This document shows positions 20,409 to 63,990 of a stretch of 64,000 nucleotides of DNA, in pieces. Source of the DNA: a virus (taxonomy: Duplodnaviria; Caudoviricetes); IMG/VR virus record IMGVR_UViG_3300037455_000173, positions 64,001-128,000 of that record; one strand, 5' to 3'. The notes beneath the pieces were generated by a model, which was not told where the DNA came from, did not search any database, and saw nothing but the letters and a program-made list of their open reading frames with translations. Position 1 is the stretch's first letter. Each line of letters opens with the position of its first letter. A program made the position numbers and the translations under genes.

Positions 20409-20991
20409 TACTCTTCGTCTCCTCAGCAACAATCTTATTGATTTTATTATAGATGTACCAATAACAAAAATTGTCAAAGGTATTACCTATCACTGCAGCT
20501 ACAAATAGAAGTGACAACCCCATGGGACAGATTAATGCTATCCCTGCACCTATAAGTGTAGCGGCACTGTTAGCTATATTGCAGTTGTTATCATATCGTT
20601 CTCTGCTTTTCTCATCTGGGTGTACCTTTGCTCTAAGTCGAATGCCTCCATTAGCAATGTGTCTACTAACAAAGGCATAGGTTATAACATTGAATACGAA
20701 ATAGAACTTTAGGTCACCTGTGATAAAGACATGACCGAATAAGAAAGCGTCTGCAATCAGTTCAGCAACTATCAATACCCGAAAATGCTTGTACAAGAAG
20801 TCACCTATCTTATTCCATAATACACCTAGAACAATTATACCTGAACATTGTATAATCTGTTCGGCTGAGATGTACCTTGAGTTGACAGCCTTTACCAGTT
20901 CGGCATATATGTAAGGGTAACTCAAAGCATAGAACAAGTTACAGATGAAGTTAGTACCTAGCATTATTCTAGATAGTTTCTTACGTGTCAT
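20395..20991 (-). CDS. multi-pass membrane protein (half-MFS-like, ~6 TM)
   Basis: Alternating hydrophobic segments. Confidence 0.6.
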   Translation of the reverse strand: MTRKKLSRIMLGTNFICNLFYALSYPYIYAELVKAVNSRYISAEQIIQCSGIIVLGVLWNKIGDFLYKHFRVLIVAELIADAFLFGHVFITGDLKFYFVFNVITYAFVSRHIANGGIRLRAKVHPDEKSRERYDNNCNIANSAATLIGAGIALICPMGLSLLFVAAVIGNTFDNFCYWYIYNKINKIVAEETKSNADR

Positions 20992-21679
20992 TTTCCCTTA
21001 TCTTATTTAGTACTTCAAGATTCTTCTTGTAGGTAGCATATCTCTCCTGGAACTCTTCAGCGGATATCTGTTCAAAACCGTTACCAACTTCCTTAAAGTA
21101 CCAATTCAGGATTTTAACCGAACCATCTGGCTCAGTTACCTGTTTAATTTCCATGGTGTCAAATTCACCAGGAACGGCAGACATGGCAAAATCCTTTGCT
21201 AAAATTCTATACCTGCCTTCTGGCATATAAGGAAAGGTGATGGGATATAATTCTTTCATCTTTCTACTTACAAATCCATTTGTCCAGCTTATTCCCGAAT
21301 TATCATAGCAGATGAACCGGTCAGTATCATGATAACTGACTTGACCTGTCGCTTTATCAACGTCCTTGAACAATGAATAAAGTCGACGACATTGATAACT
21401 TTCATGACCATTTCTGTCTTCAAGTACATTCCAGTTTTCTGGTATATCCTCGATAGGTGTAAGCGGTTGCTCAGCCATTAACTTTCTAAGTATGCTTGAA
21501 GTAAAAGCAAAGCTCATCCCACTATGTCCGTCGTCGCATAAAGACTCATAAGCTTTCAAAGCACTACGATAGCAAGCTTCTGAGTAGCCTATTAAATCTA
21601 GCTCATCAGGATGAGCTGTTGCCTTCTCATGCTCGATAGCTAATTCTATCTCATGTCTAGCCCATTCTTTCATACTCAC
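20981..21679 (-). CDS. phage hypothetical protein
   Basis: 232-aa ORF with overlapping start/stop coupling; GHSGMS and PLTPI motifs. Confidence 0.7.
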   Translation of the reverse strand: MSMKEWARHEIELAIEHEKATAHPDELDLIGYSEACYRSALKAYESLCDDGHSGMSFAFTSSILRKLMAEQPLTPIEDIPENWNVLEDRNGHESYQCRRLYSLFKDVDKATGQVSYHDTDRFICYDNSGISWTNGFVSRKMKELYPITFPYMPEGRYRILAKDFAMSAVPGEFDTMEIKQVTEPDGSVKILNWYFKEVGNGFEQISAEEFQERYATYKKNLEVLNKIRENDT

Positions 21680-26272: not shown

Positions 26273-27151
26273 TTATCGAATTCCTAATGCTTTCTTAAAT
26301 ACCGACACATTGAACTTGACTGAAGATTCCTTTAACTTGTATTTCTCACACATATCTGGCATAGTCAGATTCTGATAATCGTTCAGAAATTGTGCTTTAT
26401 CTTCAGCTGAGTATCTATTCTTCTTATTAGTGTTAGCTTTAGTTTTAGTTTTAGTTTTAGTTTTAGTTTTAGGTTTTTTCTTTTCTTCTGGTTTTATACC
26501 CTTACGAGTTGATGCTGTCTTACGCATTTCTTTTACGCTTTCTTTATCAACCTGCTGCAACTCTTCGTCTCGATATTCTGTACCGTTTACCATATCTGCG
26601 GTAGTTAGGTTAATGTCAAACTTCTTCGACAGCATGTCTGCTAATCTTTCAACCCTAACCTCAGTATCCTTTTGCTTCCATGCATCAATCTTCTTGCGCT
26701 CGTTCTCAGCTAATTCCTGCACAATACGCTCTAAGACTTTCATGTCAGCAACTCTAGGCTTTAAGCCTAACTGTCTAGTCAACGCATCATCAATCTTATT
26801 CATGAACGCTAAGCTAAAAGAATACATGAAATAAGATTTAGGATGCTCGAATGTTAGAATAGATACGGTCATTATCTGTTCGCACAGAACTACCTGATTA
26901 CGGGCTTCTGGCTTACCGTCCTCATACCTGAAGTACAGATGCTGCGGTAATGTGTCTGAATTTCTTGTTGTGATTGGTAATACGTTGAATGTAGGTGAAT
27001 TAAGATTGTTCTCCTCACACGAAACAATCACACACGGTCTCGACTTCTTCTGAACACTTGAATTATTGATTCCGTCCCCATTTTCCGTCTCAAAGTGAAG
27101 ATACCAAACATCTCCTCTTCTGAAACGACTGTACCACTTTTCCATAATCAA
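26273..27151 (-). CDS. PemK/MazF-family endoribonuclease domain fused to a long basic C-terminal extension
   Basis: RRGDVWY, QKKSRPCVIVS, NVLPITT, VVLCEQIMTV. Confidence 0.8.
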   Translation of the reverse strand: MIMEKWYSRFRRGDVWYLHFETENGDGINNSSVQKKSRPCVIVSCEENNLNSPTFNVLPITTRNSDTLPQHLYFRYEDGKPEARNQVVLCEQIMTVSILTFEHPKSYFMYSFSLAFMNKIDDALTRQLGLKPRVADMKVLERIVQELAENERKKIDAWKQKDTEVRVERLADMLSKKFDINLTTADMVNGTEYRDEELQQVDKESVKEMRKTASTRKGIKPEEKKKPKTKTKTKTKTKANTNKKNRYSAEDKAQFLNDYQNLTMPDMCEKYKLKESSVKFNVSVFKKALGIR

Positions 27152-55734: not shown

Positions 55735-55931
55735 AGATAATCCCTCCTTTCAGTTTATTATATATGTTATTATCAGAGATTATACCGTAATAACCACGTA
55801 TGCTGCTACAGCATGCGTAAGGTTTATAAACTATGTATAATGTTATACCACACGTATTAGACACACGAAAACTAAACGCACAACAGTAGCAAAACCGTTG
55901 TGCGTTTATAAGGAGTATATATGAAAGAGAA

Positions 55932-56465
55932 TTACACCAATCTATTATATTTATCTTCCCAGAAAATCGTTTCACCTTTCATTAAAGTTCTTTGAACATC
56001 GATAAGTCTTTGATTTTCTGAACCACGATATTTTAATAGTAGGTTCTTCTTTTCAATCTGAAACGGACCGTCCACGAGTACATCTATACAATCTAGAATA
56101 TCCTTTACATATGGAGTAGACACACCAGAGCATAATAGTTGCTCTATTGTATACCCAGTAAAGCACCAGATATCTTTGCCAGGTAGTAGTCTAACCACGG
56201 TGGATAATAGATAATAGACTTCTTTCTGATTTTTAGGTTCAAATGGTTCACCACCTAATAGTGACAAACCCCGAACATGCGGATTAGACAACATATGGAT
56301 TATTCTGAGTAGAACTCCTTCATCATAAGGTTCACCATAGTCGAAATCCCAAGCTACCTCATTGAAACAACCGGGACATTTTCTAGTACAACCAGAAACA
56401 TACACGCTAACTCTTACACCGGGTCCGTTTGCTATATCCAAATTCTTGATATTAGCAATGTTCAT
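55932..56465 (-). CDS. nrdG: anaerobic ribonucleotide reductase activating enzyme
   Basis: DIANGPGVRVS, CTRKCPGC, GGEP, DVLVDGPF, RGSENQR. Confidence 0.95.
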   Translation of the reverse strand: MNIANIKNLDIANGPGVRVSVYVSGCTRKCPGCFNEVAWDFDYGEPYDEGVLLRIIHMLSNPHVRGLSLLGGEPFEPKNQKEVYYLLSTVVRLLPGKDIWCFTGYTIEQLLCSGVSTPYVKDILDCIDVLVDGPFQIEKKNLLLKYRGSENQRLIDVQRTLMKGETIFWEDKYNRLV

Positions 56466-58636
56466 AGATGTTCAACCCTATCCTTTATCTCTTGAGTACG
56501 TCCCTGGTTCCAGAATTGAGTACCAATATATCCACAGGTACGGCGAGCAACAGACATCTTTGTCTGGTCTCTATTACCACAATTCGGACACTCCCATAGA
56601 AGCTTTCCATCTTCCTCGATTATTTCAATCTCACCGTCATATCCACATTCGTGGCAGTAATCACTCTTGGTATTAAGCTCAGCATACTGAATTTCATTAT
56701 AGATGAACTTAACTACTTCCAGAACTGCTGGGATATTATCGGTCATATCAGGTACTTCTATATATGAGATAGCGCCACCAGGTGATAACTTCTGGAACTC
56801 AGATTCAAAAGCAAGTTTGGTAAATGCATCAATCTTTTCAGTTACATGGACATGATATGAATTAGTAATATAATTCTTATCTGTTATGCCTTCGATTACA
56901 CCGAAACGCTTCTGAAGTGCCTTAGCAAACTTATAGGTTGTACTTTCTAATGGAGTTCCATATACAGCATAGCCTATGTTCTCAGCTTTCTTCCATTCGA
57001 TACATTTATCATTAAGTCTTTGCATAATAGCCAAAGCAAAGTCCTTAGCTTCTGGGTCTGTATGTGAATGACCGGTCATCGCTTTGACACATTCATATAA
57101 ACCAGCATATCCAAGTGATATTGTCGAATAGCCACCATAAAGTAGCTTATCTATCTTCTCACCTTTCTCCAATCTAGCTATCGCACCATGCTGCCAAAGA
57201 ATAGGAGCTACATCAGAAGTTGTACCTAGAAGTCTTTCATGTCGGATACGTAACGCTCTATGACATAGTTCAAGCTTGTCATCAAGAATACGCCAGAACT
57301 TATCAAAGTCACCTCTAGCTGTTAAACCAACAGCTGGGAGATTTAAGGTTACTACTCCTTGATTAAAACGACCGAAGTATTTTGCTTTTCCATTCTCGTC
57401 TACATAGGGAGATAAAAAAGAACGGCATCCCATAGGTGGAAAACATTGACCATCACCGTTCGCATCTATCTTCGTCGCTTTCATTATCTTTTCTGAAACA
57501 TAGTCTGGTACCATTCTCTTAGCAGTACATTTTGCTGCCAATTCGGTTAGATACCAATATTCGGTAGTTTCATCGCAGTTATTCGTATCAAGTACATAGA
57601 TAAGTTTAGGAAATGCAGGTGTTATCCATACACCCTTTTCATTCTTAACACCTTGAATACGCTGCTTCAAAATCTCCTCGATAACTAATGCTAAGTCCTT
57701 CTTCTCTTGTTCAGTTCTAGCTTCATTCAGGTATAAAGAAAGGCTCAAGAAAGGAGCCTGACCGTTGGTAGTCATTAGTGTGATTACCTGGTATTGAATT
57801 GTCTGAACACCTTTTGATATTTCCTTAGCGAGTCTTTTATTGAGAATAGTTTCTGCTTGACGCTCTGATAACTGTAAATCAGCAGCAGCACATTCCTCTA
57901 AGATTTGCTTCTTAATGCTTTGTCTACTAACATCAACGAATGGAGCTAGATGAGCTATAGATATTGTCTGACCACCATACTGATTAGAAGCAACCTGTGC
58001 AATAATCTGTGTTGCTATATTACAAGCGGTTGAGAATGAATGTGGTCTATCGATACCTGTACCGGAAATTACAGTACCATTCTCGAGCATATCTTGTAGA
58101 TTGATTAAGCAGCAATTATACATAGGCTGAGCGAAGTAATCTGCATCATGGAAATGAATATCCCCTATTCTATTCGCTTCCTGTATATCTTCAGGCAATA
58201 GGTGTGTAAATGTTATGTTCTTAGACACTTCACCTGCCATATAATCACGCTGAACAGAATTAATCAGAGTATTCTTATTGGAATTTTCTTCCTTTAATAC
58301 AGCGTTCTTGTTCTGAATTAATGACATTATGTTGTCTGTCATGTTGTCTGATTTACGTGCTAAAGCACGCTTATAGCGGTATGTAATATACTCTTCAGAC
58401 AGCTTTGAGAGGTTCTGATTTATTAGCTCTTGAACTACAAAATCCTGAACGTCTTCGACGGAAACAATGCTAGTCTGCTGCTCACACCTAAAAATTACAG
58501 CATCAGCAATCACAGTAATCTGTTCATCTGTTAGCTTATTTTCTTCGCTCATCTTAGCATTAGCTTTAGATATAGCGCTGACAATCTTACTCCCATCGAA
58601 CCCGACTTCTTTTCCGTCTCTTTTGATAATTTGCAT
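56462..58636 (-). CDS. nrdD: anaerobic ribonucleoside-triphosphate reductase (class III) with ATP cone
   Basis: IIKRDG ATP cone, NCCL, MGCRSFL, CHECG..CPNCG, RRTCGYIG glycyl-radical motif; start set at MQIIK. Confidence 0.95.
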   Translation of the reverse strand: MQIIKRDGKEVGFDGSKIVSAISKANAKMSEENKLTDEQITVIADAVIFRCEQQTSIVSVEDVQDFVVQELINQNLSKLSEEYITYRYKRALARKSDNMTDNIMSLIQNKNAVLKEENSNKNTLINSVQRDYMAGEVSKNITFTHLLPEDIQEANRIGDIHFHDADYFAQPMYNCCLINLQDMLENGTVISGTGIDRPHSFSTACNIATQIIAQVASNQYGGQTISIAHLAPFVDVSRQSIKKQILEECAAADLQLSERQAETILNKRLAKEISKGVQTIQYQVITLMTTNGQAPFLSLSLYLNEARTEQEKKDLALVIEEILKQRIQGVKNEKGVWITPAFPKLIYVLDTNNCDETTEYWYLTELAAKCTAKRMVPDYVSEKIMKATKIDANGDGQCFPPMGCRSFLSPYVDENGKAKYFGRFNQGVVTLNLPAVGLTARGDFDKFWRILDDKLELCHRALRIRHERLLGTTSDVAPILWQHGAIARLEKGEKIDKLLYGGYSTISLGYAGLYECVKAMTGHSHTDPEAKDFALAIMQRLNDKCIEWKKAENIGYAVYGTPLESTTYKFAKALQKRFGVIEGITDKNYITNSYHVHVTEKIDAFTKLAFESEFQKLSPGGAISYIEVPDMTDNIPAVLEVVKFIYNEIQYAELNTKSDYCHECGYDGEIEIIEEDGKLLWECPNCGNRDQTKMSVARRTCGYIGTQFWNQGRTQEIKDRVEHL

Positions 58637-58699
58637 AGTAGTCACTCCTTCCTGATTAAGAGGCACACGGTACCTCTTTACTTATTGTATGCTACGCAC

Positions 58700-59644
58700 T
58701 CACGATTCTGAGGTAAAGAAATGGATTAAATCTTTAACATCCTCTTCTGTCTCCCAGTCCCAATGCTTGGTGGCTGCGTAGATATCAGGAAGAGCTCTAG
58801 ACTCTTCATCAGTTAAATCAAAACCACGACCATATGTCCAATATGCGTTAGACCACGGTATGTATGATTGGATAAGAATATTATCAGATTTTGGAAGTTC
58901 AATCTCACGACTAGATATTGTTCTGTACAAAGCAAAGTAATAGATTTTTTCTGCACCTAGCTCTGATAAACGACGAATTACTGCCTGAGCAGTTCTACCA
59001 CTTGAAATTAAATCATCTATAACGATAACATTTCTACCGGTTACTTCTGTACACTTCGTTTCTGTAACCTGAATTAATCCATCGTCCTGTGTATTTGTTG
59101 CTGTATCATAATGCTGAACATCAAATACAATATCTGATTTAATGCCCATTCTATCAGCTAACATAGTACCTGCACATGCTATAGAAGCATATAGACAGTT
59201 ACCGTCGTCTGGTGATTCTACCATAAGCTTAAAATTATTTTCTAAGAGCGTAGCAGCTACACCGCTAATATATGGTTCTGTAGCCTTTGCTCTAGGAAAT
59301 GACCAAGAATCATTATCTATTAAATCTAGAACAGCGTCTAAGATTTTATTACAATTAGCAGGTCGTTGACATATACCAAGTACCCTGTCAAAAGTCTTGA
59401 TATGAATAGCCACGTTACCTACAGCACGTACTTCAGCTTCATCTGGTGAACCTATATTCGTACATAAAATCTGAGTATCGGGTGCCGCCTGTACAAAGTA
59501 CAAAGCCACCGGTTTATCTTTATTCTCCCTAATTGAATCTGGTACTACAATACAGCAATTCTTAGCTTCATTCTGCCAATAGTATTTAGAATCTGCTATG
59601 GCTTGTGTACCTAAATCTGATGCATAAAAGTCTAACATCAACAT
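58700..59644 (-). CDS. type I phosphoribosyltransferase, HPRT-like C-terminal half
   Basis: PRPP-binding VIVIDDLISSGRT; YGRGFD...RALPDIY resembles the HPRT C-terminus; own promoter. Confidence 0.75.
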   Translation of the reverse strand: MLMLDFYASDLGTQAIADSKYYWQNEAKNCCIVVPDSIRENKDKPVALYFVQAAPDTQILCTNIGSPDEAEVRAVGNVAIHIKTFDRVLGICQRPANCNKILDAVLDLIDNDSWSFPRAKATEPYISGVAATLLENNFKLMVESPDDGNCLYASIACAGTMLADRMGIKSDIVFDVQHYDTATNTQDDGLIQVTETKCTEVTGRNVIVIDDLISSGRTAQAVIRRLSELGAEKIYYFALYRTISSREIELPKSDNILIQSYIPWSNAYWTYGRGFDLTDEESRALPDIYAATKHWDWETEEDVKDLIHFFTSES

Positions 59645-59791: not shown

Positions 59792-60373
59792 TTAATCGTT
59801 TCTTACTAAGCTGTAGAACTCGTTACGTAGGTCAGAATCTGTCTTGAATACACCACGAAGAGTTGCTGTTCTTGTTTTTGTACCAGGCTTCTTAATACCA
59901 CGAGCGGTCATACAAGAGTGTTCTCCCTCGATGACAACGATAATATCATTAGTACCTAAAACCTTTTCTAATACATCTGCAATATCAGCACCTATACGTT
60001 CCTGAAGCTGTAGACGTTTACCTACCATATCAGCAATACGAGCTACCTTGCTTAAACCGATTACCTTACCGTTCGGCAAGTAACCAACATGAACCTTCAT
60101 ATTGTACATCAGAGCCATATGATGTTCACAGTAGCTGAAGATTGGAATGTCAGCAATGGTAACTAGGTCACCAGTTGCACCGTCCTCGAAGCATTTATTG
60201 AACTTATCAGCTATTTCATCATTTGTGTAGCACATACCCTCGAATACTTCTGCATACATCTTTGCTACACGCTTTGGTGTGTCTTTAAGACCTTCACGTT
60301 CTGGGTTGTCACCAAGAGCAACCAGAATGTCTTTAACTGCTTTCTCGATAGCTGCTGTGTCGATTTTCTTCAT
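59792..60373 (-). CDS. folE: GTP cyclohydrolase I
   Basis: [42 protein letters not shown]. Confidence 0.95.
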
Positions 60374-60445
60374 GTCTATTTTCCTCCTTTACCTGTCGTT
60401 TATGAAATTCTCGTCTGATAGCCGCTTGACGCATCTTTCCACATA

Positions 60446-61150
60446 TTAGACACCACGAGCACCAGGGTCGTAGATTATTTTATGAAGCTGAACTTGAATC
60501 TTTACATAAACCAGTCTCTTTTCGAGTAGGTACTGAACTATCTCAGCAGGCTCTATCTTACCCCATACCGGGCTTACATAGATTTGAGCATCTATTTCAG
60601 GATTAGCTTCAAGCACATCCTTCATCTGGTCTAAGTCTTCCTGACTACCTACAACAAACTTCAGAACGTCGTTCGTGTCAAGTAGCTCCAGATTGGAAGA
60701 TAACATCTTAGATGACTCACCAGAACTAATAGATTTCCAGTCCATGGTGAAGAAGTAATCCATAGAGCTCTTCTTATCAGCCTGACCGACAATTATAGGT
60801 TCTAGGTCAATAGAGCCATTCGTCTCTATGTTTACCCAATATCCACGAACTCTAAGCTCTGATATAAGGTCACCGACGTGTTCATGTATAAGTGGTTCTC
60901 CACCTGTTAATGTTATACACTTACAGGGTTCGAACGTCTCTACTGCCAAGATTATCTCGTCTATGGACATCTTTCTGAAACCAAAACCGAGGTCGTCTAA
61001 CTCAGACTTACAAGCATAAGTAGAGTCACAATAAGAACAGTCCAGGTTGCAGCCAAACAAACGAATGAATATAGCAGGAGAACCTGTTCTAGAACCTTCT
61101 CCATCTATGCTATAGAAGATTTCTGATACTGGAAATGTTATCTCATTCAT
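60446..61150 (-). CDS. queE: 7-carboxy-7-deazaguanine synthase (radical SAM)
   Basis: EIFYSIDGEG, FIRLFGCNLDCSYCDS, TGGEP, IETNGS, QLHK. Confidence 0.95.
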   Translation of the reverse strand: MNEITFPVSEIFYSIDGEGSRTGSPAIFIRLFGCNLDCSYCDSTYACKSELDDLGFGFRKMSIDEIILAVETFEPCKCITLTGGEPLIHEHVGDLISELRVRGYWVNIETNGSIDLEPIIVGQADKKSSMDYFFTMDWKSISSGESSKMLSSNLELLDTNDVLKFVVGSQEDLDQMKDVLEANPEIDAQIYVSPVWGKIEPAEIVQYLLEKRLVYVKIQVQLHKIIYDPGARGV

Positions 61151-61545
61151 TATAGCATACCTCCTAATGTGCAACAAGCAATGTTGCCTTCAGATTCCTG
61201 AACGGTAACCTTATAGCACTTACCGTCTGCACCATCTAGGGGATTAAGTTCATCAAATTTCTTGTTCATTTCACAAAGTATCCAGGCTGCCATATTCTCA
61301 GCTGTTGGGTTCATATCTGTGATAACATCATTGATATGATGATGGTCAAGTCTGTCTGAAATTAGATTTTTGATGTGCTTAAAATCGATAATCATACCAT
61401 TATGATTGAGGTGATTCGCTCCGCAGTAAACGGTAACAATCCAGTTATGACCATGAATGTTTCTGCACTTAGATTCATAGTCAAGAGAAAGCTGGTGAGA
61501 ACCAGCTATCTCCATTCTTTTAGATATTGAATATCTGAAGTCCAT
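61150..61545 (-). CDS. queD: 6-carboxytetrahydropterin synthase
   Basis: H.L, CRNIHGHNW, GMIIDF, LDH..IN, NPTAEN. Confidence 0.95.
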   Translation of the reverse strand: MDFRYSISKRMEIAGSHQLSLDYESKCRNIHGHNWIVTVYCGANHLNHNGMIIDFKHIKNLISDRLDHHHINDVITDMNPTAENMAAWILCEMNKKFDELNPLDGADGKCYKVTVQESEGNIACCTLGGML

Positions 61546-61548
61546 AAC

Positions 61549-62253
61549 TCATACCTCCACCTTAATAGCAGGGTCTATTGCGTTATTAGCAGAAAATGCC
61601 TTTGCTCTGTCAATGCAGGTACCACATTTACCACAAGGTCCAGCTTCACCACCATTATAGCAGCTCCAGGTATACTCATAAGGAACCTTAAGCTCAAGAC
61701 CTTTCTTTACTACTTCAGCTTTACTCGAACCAGCAAATGGTGCTTTAAGGGTTACCTTACCGTAGGTACCTATACCTATAGCATCATTCATAGAATCAAT
61801 GAATTCCGGCGAGCAGTCAGCGTATGCATTACCTGCCGCGTCATCTGCATGAGCTCCGATATAGATATATACTTCTTCATCAGGATACACAGAAGCTGCT
61901 ACAGAAGCTGCTGTAGAAAGGAACAAGCCGTTCCGAAAGGGGACATAGGTAGCCACCATACCATTTTCACTTCTGCCAATCTGGTCAGCATAGTCACCTT
62001 CAGGAACTGCTTCTGTAGAATTCTGAAGTAAAGGACAATTACTATACTGGAAAATTGCTGACAAATCCAACTCGATGTGCTTTACATTGTAATGGTTAGC
62101 AACCGTAGTTGCTGCTTCCAGCTCACGCTTATGTCTCTGTCCATAGAACATAGATACTGATGTAACATTGGCAGCACCAAGCTCGTGTACTGCTAAACCA
62201 AGACAAGTGGTACTATCTATACCACCTGAACTAAGAACGATTGCCTTAGGCAT
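61549..62253 (-). CDS. queC: 7-cyano-7-deazaguanine synthase
   Basis: [34 protein letters not shown]. Confidence 0.95.
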
Positions 62254-62752
62254 CGTAAGTCACCTTCCTTTCCGCTGCTGACTGAAGAACTGCCAGACGT
62301 CTCTGAGTTTCAAGGTCCTTGAACTCAGGGTGGTCAGGGTGAACATATGTAGAGAACGGAAAGATTGCGATACCTCCTCTAGGTGCAAAAATACCACGAA
62401 CTTCAAGGTACTTAGGCTCCATCAGCTTAACCAGGTCTTTACAAATCTGATTTACGCAGTCTTCATGGAATGAACCATGATTACGGTAACTGAAGAGATA
62501 AAGTTTAAGTGATTTAGACTCTACCATTCTTTCACTCGGTATATAGCTGATTATAATCTTTGCCATATCAGGCTGTCCAGTCTTAGGACACAATGCTGTA
62601 AACTCATAGGCGTCAAATGTAACCACATAATCCTGGTCTGGGTGTTTATTTATAAACGTCTCTAGAACACCTGGATTATATTCGGTTTCATATTTAGTAT
62701 TCTGATTACCTAATAAGGTAACACCTTCTAATTCTTTTTCTGTACGAGCCAT
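62246..62752 (-). CDS. queF: preQ0 reductase (unimodular QueF)
   Basis: [22 protein letters not shown] QueF motif, FHE, PRGGI. Confidence 0.95.
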
Positions 62753-62754
62753 AA

Positions 62755-63990
62755 TTAAGCCTCCTCACCTTTAAACTCGCCGTCTTTGAGATATTCTTTC
62801 CAGCTGTGTCTCTTGATAAGCATACCATCACCGAAGCTCATGAAACGATATCTCTTATCTACTGCGTGCTTATATGCTGTCATGATTTCGTCATAACCAG
62901 CAACAACAGATACGAGCATCATAAGAGTTGTCTCAGGTGCGTGGAAGTTAGTGATAAGACCGTCTATGCAGTTTACACGTTCAGCTGTTTCAGAACCAGG
63001 ATAAATAAAGATGCTGGTGTCTGTAGAGAATTCTGCAGGATTCTCCCAAACCTCAGGAGGAATAGAAGCAAGTGTACGAAGTGAAGTTGTACCCACTGCT
63101 ACTACATTATGTCCTTCCTTATGTGCCTGCTTAATGTCCTTTATAACATTTACAGGACAGAAGCAATGCTCTGTATGCATAGCGTGATTTCTGAGGTCCT
63201 TAACAACAACAGGCTTAAATGTACCAAGACCAACATCAAGTGTTACCTCTCTAACCTTTACACCCTTATCCTTGAGAGCCTGAAGTATCTCAGGAGTAAA
63301 GTGAAGACCTGCTGTCGGAGCTGCACAAGAAGTTCTTTCCTTAGCATAAACCGTGTTGTACATCTCAGAGATATACTCCTCAGAATGACCTCTACCCTGA
63401 ATATACGGAGGAAGCGGTGTTTCACCTATCTTGTCAAGAACATCCCAACCAGATGAGTTAGCAAAGTCAAGAAATACTTCACCCTCATCATCACAACTCT
63501 TAATTGTAACTTCAGCATCATCAGAACCATTAAGAACAAGAATTGTACCCTCTTCCTGAGGTTTGCTAATCATTGCCTTCCAGGTTGAACCACCCTGATA
63601 CTGAACGAACAGTATCTCTACTGTATTATCTTCATCTGCCTGTGTGCCTTTCTTGTAAGCAAAAGCACGTGCAGGAATTACCTTTGTGTTATTAAGAACG
63701 AGCACGTCACCCTCGTTGAAGTAATCACAGATATCTGTGAAGTGTTTGTCTGTAAGTGCTACTGCAGGACCTTCACCTGTAGCTTCAACCGTTGTGTCTA
63801 CAATAAGACACCTTGCACTTGCTCTGTCAGGAAGAGGCTCCTGAGCGATAAGCTCCTGAGGAAGGTCATAACGATAATGAGCAGCAGAGAACTGCTCTTC
63901 TGCTGGGGCTGTATCAAGTCCCTTAGCGGTTACTGTGCTAGAATTACTGAATATATCAGGTATTCCAGTTTCCATTTTGTTTGTGTTCAT
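62755..63990 (-). CDS. queA: SAM:tRNA ribosyltransferase-isomerase
   Basis: [67 protein letters not shown]. Confidence 0.95.

Follow-up and report, generated by a model that had tools for sequence, protein, structure and literature searches.

At the right-hand end of the window analysed here, a stretch of 64,000 nucleotides corresponding to bases 64001-128000 of the 166,592-bp virus record IMGVR_UViG_3300037455_000173 (CheckV completeness 100%), lies a run of queuosine-pathway genes headed by queA. The encoded QueA is diverged, conserved and under selection, and throughout a phage lineage it is tied to a transglycosylase of the DpdA family, which contradicts the statement that viruses have no QueA. 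In the available text of PMC6884629, no homologues of QueA, QueG or QueH are reported for the viruses analysed, and the accessible sections of PMC8265664 likewise describe viruses as carrying no QueAGH; the preliminary description of this DNA, made from the letters alone, started from the same premise for phage clusters and on this point agrees with both papers. The open-access papers searched yielded no report of a phage QueA, of deoxyqueuosine or epoxyqueuosine in DNA, or of a viral auxiliary queA, although the supplementary virus tables of the papers could hold a QueA-bearing record.

The favoured reading, to which a probability of roughly one half is assigned, is that a 7-deazaguanine DNA hypermodification of the type found in phage Dp-1 has been extended by a virus-adapted QueA. 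This enzyme would elaborate preQ1 (7-aminomethyl-7-deazaguanine), either destined for or already in the phage DNA, into an epoxyqueuosine-type base. At the same even odds, a family of large gut phages would combine a virus-specific QueA with DpdA, not Tgt, to produce a 2′-deoxy-epoxyqueuosine-type nucleotide, the first queuosine-family base reported in DNA. The reading thereby predicts a ninth and much larger deazaguanine base of DNA: in the part of PMC10516641 that is accessible, eight are listed, none of them beyond methyl- or formyl-preQ1, and QueA is not mentioned, while the available text of PMC6884629 states that 2′-deoxyqueuosine (dQ) was not detected in the phage DNAs tested. The comparisons show which genes are present, what they are homologous to, their folds, their conservation and the selection acting on them; each chemical step, above all the substrate of QueA, is inferred.

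A conserved and diverged QueA

The assignment of the protein to the QueA family is clear from its scores against NF001140 (368.9 bits, cut-off 324), TIGR00113 (340 bits, cut-off 267) and PF02547 (E=2e-105). Its core, residues 39-392, aligns to the solved structures 1yy3 (E=5.6e-78), 1vky and 1wdi and has the two-domain QueA architecture. This core is also confidently predicted in the AlphaFold2 (AF2) model, which reaches a predicted local distance difference test score (pLDDT) of 85.7 and a predicted template modelling score (pTM) of 0.87. The N-terminal extension is modelled as coil, with residues 1-10 disordered and residues 11-30 of middling confidence, and the C-terminal tail is variable.

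The gene is a constant feature of the lineage. The run queA-queF-queC-queD-queE-folE is found at the equivalent place in 8/8 IMG/VR relatives (77-162 kb), and queA and dpdA occur together in all nine genomes, that is, in this genome and in each of the eight relatives. QueA is 85-93% identical across these relatives. In the most divergent of them, L009, it is 85% identical to the protein of the present phage, at an identity of 45% for the sigma factor, 59% for the hub and 58% for DpdA. Pairwise comparison with the eight relatives gives ratios of nonsynonymous to synonymous substitution rates (dN/dS) of 0.042-0.059 at dS values of 0.95-2.5; queA is under strong purifying selection. Public protein data contain about 100 QueA clusters at 82-94% identity, many of them on 130-162-kb contigs. 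Among viral collections, BFVD holds no QueA-fold protein at an E value of 0.001 or better, and in INPHARED 22 records match QueA across most of its length with identities of no more than 46%; these are mostly unannotated fragments, and two large ones are named after Acinetobacter and Staphylococcus.

Outside the phage clade, identity falls straight to 48-53%, the value for a metagenomic set of QueAs of 372-395 aa referred to here as group 2. For the cellular QueAs used for comparison, here and below, the 80 best were taken from each collection, out of at least 600 matches, and they form an uneven sample; the closest of them is at most 47% identical, and all of the closest ones are from Bacillota in gut or rumen assemblies. 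In a maximum-likelihood tree of 89 sequences (7 phage, 12 group 2, 70 cellular), the phage sequences and group 2 form one clade with a support of 100 in the Shimodaira-Hasegawa-like approximate likelihood ratio test (SH-aLRT), and its stem measures 1.13 substitutions per site. Judged by these sequence comparisons, the viral-type QueA is a separate long-branch subfamily and no ordinary recent host copy.

Further distinguishing marks are found in the protein itself. Both the phage clade and group 2 are extended at the N-terminus by about 35 residues. Within this extension, D12, F14, S15, D26 and P29 are invariant in 120/120 sequences; its D-[IV]-F-[ST] motif is absent from the 152 aligned cellular sequences, and an upstream scan of 165 QueA loci, cellular or metagenomic, did not detect it. 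In addition, eight signature positions separate the viral-type from the cellular alignment: K138 instead of E, T191 instead of M, I207 instead of D, N212 instead of Q, T220 instead of G, D252 instead of H, I283 instead of A and A351 instead of L. The viral-type residue is present in 118-120 of the 120 sequences and the cellular one in 130-152 of the 152. Several of these changes affect the most conserved motifs of the family, with D252 replacing the H of LHVGxGTF (H in 147/152 cellular QueAs), T220 the G that precedes AAPTAGLHF (G in 150/152) and A351 the L of NFHLP (L in 152/152). Because 60 other columns, including NxH, stay invariant across both groups, the S-adenosylmethionine (SAM) chemistry is probably retained in the viral-type enzyme.

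The subfamily is also strongly acidic. The median net charge amounts to -24 for phage-clade QueAs and -22 for group 2, compared with -8 for the 152 cellular QueAs, and the core alone reproduces this difference (-19 vs -8). Per 100 aa, the phage QueA carries a charge of -6.1, as against -1.8 for the DpdA of the same phage, -1.5 for its PolA and -0.9 for its ligase.

The transglycosylase partner

The preliminary description had noted that neither tgt nor dpdA lies in the window and that either might follow beyond its right edge. The first statement holds, since a six-frame search of the window with PF01702 gives no match and the sole match to phrog_887 lies outside it. As to the second, a dpdA-family gene is indeed located about 29 kb past the edge, and a canonical tgt is found neither there nor anywhere else in the genome. 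A canonical bacterial tgt next to the cassette, together with unmodified DNA, had been named as the finding that would speak for a tRNA pathway; PF01702 has no match in a six-frame search of the full genome, none among the 191 open reading frames (ORFs) of at least 80 aa that were scanned with Pfam, and none in five relatives' genomes, three of which carry terminal repeats. The models for QueG and QueH (TIGR00276 and PF02677) are equally without a match in six frames of the complete genome. The Pfam TGT model is also blind to the DpdA-family protein.

The DpdA-family protein was recognised through phrog_887, annotated as 'queuine tRNA-ribosyltransferase', which gives one match among the 93 genome proteins scanned; a six-frame search confirms that this copy is the only one (E=1.1e-50). 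The profile is selective, with no match in 14 cellular control genomes, though all 14 have Tgt. Across 98% of its length the protein shares 38% identity with Gp7 of Dp-1, and its identity with the CAjan DpdA is 26%. In the alignment, D56, S57, A59, H138, H198, G201, S215 and D217 are common to the present protein and to the DpdAs of CAjan, Dp-1 and phiSM, and among 68 members of the family D56, D92, H138, H198, G201, S215 and D217 are invariant; the catalytic-type motifs DSGAF, H..G and S-x-D-S are present. The available text of PMC6884629 describes DpdA2 as lacking the histidine at 'position 196', to which H198 would correspond.

Structural comparison leads to the same family. A search of solved structures with the single DpdA sequence produces chance matches only, and a family profile is needed: with the profile of the 68 members, the best solved match is the DNA-guanine transglycosylase 7ui4 (E=4.5e-4). 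The AF2 model has a pLDDT of 92.5, and the top 50 Foldseek matches in the PDB (probability 1.00, TM score 0.48-0.60) are all TGT-family chains, the DpdA 7ui4 among them. Sequence and model place the protein with the phage DpdAs of the 9g/CAjan/Dp-1 type, and it is predicted to insert a 7-deazaguanine into DNA. For CAjan, the accessible part of PMC6884629 reports that deletion of dpdA abolishes dPreQ0, the deoxynucleotide form of 7-cyano-7-deazaguanine (preQ0).

Other types of DpdA were looked for and not found. As controls, the PHROG scan included the DpdA3 of phiST and that of an immuto phage; these fall in phrog_20335 and phrog_19058, families without a match among the 93 genome proteins scanned. 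A DpdA3 or DpdA4 among the proteins without an assigned function was likewise rejected, with no match to DUF6610 (PF20314). The PADLOC library contains no match for DpdA or for QueA.

The dpdA gene is part of the replication module, with genes for a single-stranded DNA-binding protein (SSB), clamp, RecU, clamp loader, helicase and primase on one side and a gene for a 524-aa protein on the other. The latter (L002:11825-13396, minus strand; genome 157821-159395) overlaps the start of dpdA with its end. Its product has no match in Pfam, PHROGs, PADLOC or the protein atlas and is a candidate partner of DpdA. In phiSM, a ParB-like gene follows dpdA.

The association with DpdA differs from that of the cellular enzymes. 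A canonical Tgt is encoded in 20/20 of the cellular genomes with the nearest QueAs, and it stands beside queA in both genomes checked for this (Bacillus and the first Acutalibacteraceae genome). In the phage lineage, by contrast, DpdA is the only transglycosylase. Among the comparisons, this exchange of Tgt for DpdA as partner speaks most strongly for a role of the viral-type QueA in the DNA pathway.

Proposed pathway and alternative readings

In the proposed pathway, FolE, QueD, QueE and QueC would convert GTP to preQ0, which QueF would reduce to preQ1, and the DpdA-family transglycosylase would exchange guanine in the phage DNA for the deazaguanine base. Up to the formation of dPreQ1 in DNA, this is very probably a system of the Dp-1 type and thus a further member of a described kind, to judge from its genes; in the available part of PMC6884629 (Table 2; Hutinet et al. 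2019), dPreQ1 accounts for about 1.7% of the guanines in Dp-1 DNA. With SAM as donor, the diverged QueA would then decorate the aminomethyl nitrogen of preQ1 with an epoxy-dihydroxycyclopentyl group. It might act on dPreQ1 in the DNA or on the free base ahead of its insertion by DpdA, and the order of the two steps is left open because the viral-type QueA is strongly acidic. Given that the phage has no queG or queH for a further reduction, the end product in virion DNA would be a 2′-deoxy-epoxyqueuosine-type base, with the expected benefit that the phage DNA is shielded from host nucleases.

Several points weigh against this reading. The queA and preQ1 genes lie among tail genes, 29 kb from dpdA, and are not evidently co-regulated with it. 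The protein still scores above the NCBI equivalog cut-off for the tRNA enzyme, and we know of no QueA that accepts DNA. Its acidity appears ill-suited to an unaided grip on DNA and favours free preQ1, a partner protein or another target. Group 2 has no match in IMG/VR or in the INPHARED phages, and on present sequences the label 'viral-type' holds for the phage clade only; in addition, the set of cellular matches considered may not have captured a cellular source of the subfamily. Finally, the phage is uncultured and represented by assembled contigs alone, and its DNA product is a predicted one. The preliminary description had offered two readings, the supply of queuosine (Q) for tRNAs and a QueA redirected to preQ1 in DNA or other RNAs. 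Of these, the DNA reading gains because DpdA is present and a canonical tgt is not, yet the acidic QueA leaves room for a small molecule or a tRNA as target.

The supply of queuosine for tRNA is the most plausible of the alternatives, albeit an unlikely one. Host Tgt would insert preQ1 at position 34 of tRNAs with a GUN anticodon, the phage QueA would form epoxyqueuosine, and host QueG or QueH would complete queuosine, while DpdA would separately place preQ0 or preQ1 in DNA. Such a role is consistent with a QueA that exceeds the curated cut-off of the tRNA family and whose core aligns in full with tRNA QueAs of solved structure, and the acidity that speaks against DNA binding points in the same direction. 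A tuning of host translation by phage Q-precursor genes has moreover been proposed (PMC8265664, in its accessible text). Against this, the phage has neither Tgt, QueG, QueH nor a GUN tRNA, so that three of the four tRNA-specific steps would be left to the host; as the preliminary description had stated for the window, no Q-family tRNA is present, and Glu-TTC, Gln-TTG and Leu-TAG prove to be the only tRNAs of the whole genome. Furthermore, the cellular genomes with the nearest QueAs all own both QueA and Tgt (20/20), which would make a phage copy redundant in such hosts. Eight fixed motif changes and a long stem are not expected of an enzyme with an unchanged substrate, and the viral-type QueA is more acidic than the cellular QueAs that bind tRNA, too.

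Less probable again is a QueA that has kept its fold and changed its reaction or substrate, acting for instance on a free deazapurine base, on a nucleotide, possibly one supplied by the phosphoribosyltransferase (PRTase) encoded nearby, which resembles hypoxanthine-guanine phosphoribosyltransferase (HGPRT), or on another amine. Its product would not be of the epoxyqueuosine type and may never enter DNA. The eight substitutions, fixed in the most conserved QueA motifs, could be understood in this way, as could the conserved N-terminal extension and the strong acidity; a lineage-specific PRTase of the 6-oxopurine type and NrdDG, both within the unit from queA to nrdG, fit as well. On the other hand, the 60 columns shared by viral and cellular QueAs, NxH included, suggest the same SAM chemistry, the relative L009 has no PRTase or NrdDG beside its cassette and yet retains a QueA of 85% identity, and queA adjoins the preQ1 genes in a fixed order in 9/9 genomes. 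A pre-replicative route at the nucleotide level, through the PRTase and NrdD, had also been considered as the main pathway and was dropped once DpdA was found in 9/9 genomes. That queA is a mere passenger, picked up with a fragment of a host operon, is highly improbable: host-derived genes without an obvious benefit do occur in phages and the cassette is an island between tail genes, but a dN/dS of about 0.05 at saturated dS, a presence in 9/9 genomes, a conservation greater than that of most neighbouring genes, a deep clade of its own with a closest cellular identity of 47%, and about 100 public clusters at 82-94% all argue against it.

If the favoured reading, a DNA pathway extended by QueA, is true, its product would be the bulkiest 7-deazaguanine adduct of DNA so far, and the tRNA queuosine pathway would have been transferred to DNA in full, minus the last reduction. 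Natural DNA chemistry would thereby be extended, with an enzyme that attaches a functionalised carbocycle from SAM to DNA and a new anti-restriction mark of possible effect against restriction, CRISPR and Dpd-type defences. Should queuosine supply to tRNA be correct instead, this would be the first phage to complete a queuosine-specific tRNA step, which would also be new.

Genomic context and comparison with known systems

The features of the cassette and of its surroundings are collected in Table 1. In agreement with the preliminary description, which had reported an intact run from queA to folE, the six genes are head-to-tail ORFs of the minus strand at exactly the positions given there. The junctions from queA to queE range from -28 to +3 nt, and 72 nt precede folE. 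From this arrangement, queA through nrdG appears to be a single transcription unit with the hairpin as its likely end; the terminator call comes from a consensus scan only, with 9 sites found vs 4.7 expected.

Table 1. Features of the queA cassette, its downstream genes and the distant dpdA (window positions unless marked as genome)
Feature	Length (aa)	Position	Strand	Evidence
queA, viral-type	411	62755..63990	-	NF001140, PF02547 matches
queF, unimodular NADPH-dependent preQ0 reductase, makes preQ1	168	62246..62752	-	TIGR03139
queC, 7-cyano-7-deazaguanine (preQ0) synthase	234	61549..62253	-	TIGR00364
queD, 6-carboxytetrahydropterin synthase	131	61150..61545	-	PF01242
queE, radical-SAM 7-carboxy-7-deazaguanine synthase		60446..61177	-	TIGR03963, PF04055
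folE, GTP cyclohydrolase I, first pathway step	193	59792..60373	-	NF006826
HGPRT-like phosphoribosyltransferase, lineage-specific	314	58700..59644	-	homologue search, solved-structure matches
nrdD, anaerobic ribonucleoside-triphosphate reductase	734	56462..58666	-	PF13597 E=1.6e-190
nrdG, NrdD-activating enzyme	177	55932..56465	-	PF13353 E=7e-47
terminator-like hairpin, 15-pair stem and T-rich tail, just 3′ of nrdG		55873..55908	-	consensus scan
dpdA-family transglycosylase gene	335	genome 156820-157827 = L002:10824-11828	-	phrog_887 E=2.5e-49

The enzymes that would lead to preQ1 are assigned with different margins. QueF (TIGR03139, 161.5 bits, cut-off 86.9), QueC (TIGR00364, 162.4 bits, cut-off 150.3) and FolE (NF006826, 244.8 bits, cut-off 162) exceed their family cut-offs. 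QueD matches PF01242 with 100 bits and falls slightly below the cut-off of TIGR03367 (83.6 vs 89.25). The best model for QueE is that of the clostridial enzymes, TIGR03963, with 229.4 bits, below the cut-off of 260.1, and PF04055 is matched in addition. The queE ORF is listed at 243 aa with a TTG start, and an ATG ten codons further in is the likelier true start. The translation of QueF directly displays the catalytic Cys context, LCPKTGQPD, and the motif ESKSLKLY.

Variants of these genes are observed in the relatives. In L010, QueF is encoded by a 500-aa ORF (L010:11239-12741, plus strand) that is split by an intein; this contains an HNH endonuclease as well as helix-turn-helix parts and sits immediately behind the context of the catalytic Cys (…FTSLC / … HN / CPKTGQPD; Pfam QueF, Intein_splicing and HNH_3). 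In L012, the place of QueD is taken by a 397-aa protein (L012:12446-13639, plus strand) whose N-terminal half is HNH-like and whose C-terminal half is of the PTPS/QueD family; its identity to the QueD of the window is only 30%.

The cassette is an island within the structural region. On the 5′ side of queA, an intergenic stretch of about 280 bp is followed by tail genes (baseplate hub, a 1147-aa protein and a sigma factor), and downstream of nrdG lies the gene for a 1086-aa protein, which is taken to be the tape measure. The gap between hub and queA is about 1.4 kb in 8/8 relatives. In L010, the only one in which the ORFs of this gap were read, the gene directly 5′ of queA (L010:9076-9978, plus strand) encodes a multi-pass membrane protein of 300 aa that belongs to the Vut_1/YhhQ family (E=1e-17), the type of queuosine-precursor transporters; the window genome has only about 450 bp at this place and contains no Vut_1/YhhQ gene. 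The phage itself is a 167-kb, myovirus-like one with a T4-type capsid and portal, and its RecU, YodL, GH25 and SleB-type lysin domains point to a host among the Bacillota. The sequencing runs in which it occurs, none of them listed as RNA, carry ruminant-gut labels, but only one run contains at least half of the sampled words and it may be the source sample, which makes the labels no evidence of habitat.

The PRTase downstream of folE consists of an N-terminal part of about 120 residues without a known family and an HGPRT-like C-terminal domain (VIVIDDLISSGRT; YGRGFDL), and its best solved matches are hypoxanthine-guanine phosphoribosyltransferases (E=1.4e-6). Its homologues are rare, 54 in total among 5.8 billion clusters, at 37-100% identity, and several of those compared are located on 110-162-kb contigs. 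In synteny comparison, the PRTase and NrdDG genes are not beside the cassette of L009. The protein may be an accessory to the cassette and might salvage the guanine that DpdA sets free, or else ribosylate a deazapurine. A recurring link between PRTases and deazaguanine genes is not supported: the small PRTase beside FolE in an immuto phage has only the phosphoribosyl pyrophosphate (PRPP) loop in common with it (hhalign probability 2.5%).

Further genes were noticed elsewhere in the genome. A 307-aa protein (L003:7929-8849, plus strand) has a weak match to the PHROG of the T-even beta-glucosyl-HMC (hydroxymethylcytosine) alpha-glucosyltransferase (E=4e-7) and is adjoined by a xylose-isomerase-like TIM-barrel protein (L003:8859-9683, plus strand); the pair, genome 7929-9686, may represent a second activity of DNA-sugar modification or an activity on a diol-bearing base. 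Within the window, a 232-aa protein (20984-21679, minus strand) corresponds over its N-terminal 127 residues to Pfam Tad3, an inhibitor of type I Thoeris (E=1.5e-25), and a 292-aa protein (26276-27151, minus strand) begins with a PemK/MazF-like toxin domain (Pfam E=9e-13; PHROG 'MazF-like growth inhibitor'). A 1004-aa ORF with an HNH-endonuclease intein (Intein_splicing E=1.4e-22; L004:14484-17495, minus strand; genome 32480-35494) is flanked by the portal gene and by small ORFs of no assigned function; it probably represents a packaging gene, either that of the large terminase or a different one.

Compared with known systems, the greatest likeness is to phage Dp-1. The Dp-1-type gene set of FolE, QueD, QueE, QueC, a QueF-type reductase and DpdA is complete in this genome and in 8/8 relatives. 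The Dp-1 module has the order QueF-QueC-QueD-QueE-FolE-QueT-DpdA, and its first five genes are found here in identical order with QueA in front. The identity to the Dp-1 proteins is 66% for QueF, 50% for QueC and 43% for FolE, next to the 38% of DpdA, which belongs to the same subfamily, and dpdA stands beside the clamp and RecU genes in both phages. Unlike here, Dp-1 has no QueA. Moreover, in contrast to Dp-1, a distance of 29 kb separates dpdA from the cassette here, and there is no QueT; at least the relative L010 has the Vut_1/YhhQ-type transporter instead.

A decoration of the preQ1 amine in phage DNA is also known, by methylation through DpdM (Cellulophaga phiSM, Vibrio VH7D) and by formylation through DpdN (Flavobacterium immuto phages). 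According to the available text of Cui, Hutinet et al. 2023 (PMC10516641), preQ1 is made in these phages, inserted by DpdA and modified at its aminomethyl nitrogen, the same logic as proposed here, and the DpdA of phiSM aligns with that of the present phage. The decorating enzyme here would be a QueA homologue, adding a SAM-derived C5 epoxy-diol ring that is far larger than a methyl or formyl group. General Pfam and PHROG scans, with no search aimed at DpdM or DpdN, turned up no protein like either.

The bacterial QueAs of B. subtilis (1yy3) and T. maritima (1vky) are homologous over the whole core and differ by the extension, the eight residues, the charge and the partner, which is DpdA here and not Tgt. 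From the bacterial de novo pathway of queuosine in tRNA, the system departs in that Tgt, QueG and QueH each have no match in the genome. The bacterial Dpd system, in which DpdA with DpdB inserts preQ0 and DpdC makes 2′-deoxy-7-amido-7-deazaguanosine (ADG), likewise relies on a DNA transglycosylase of the TGT fold that uses an intermediate of the queuosine pathway. No DpdB or DpdC was found here, and the setting differs from that system in being one of phage anti-restriction, not a host defence island.

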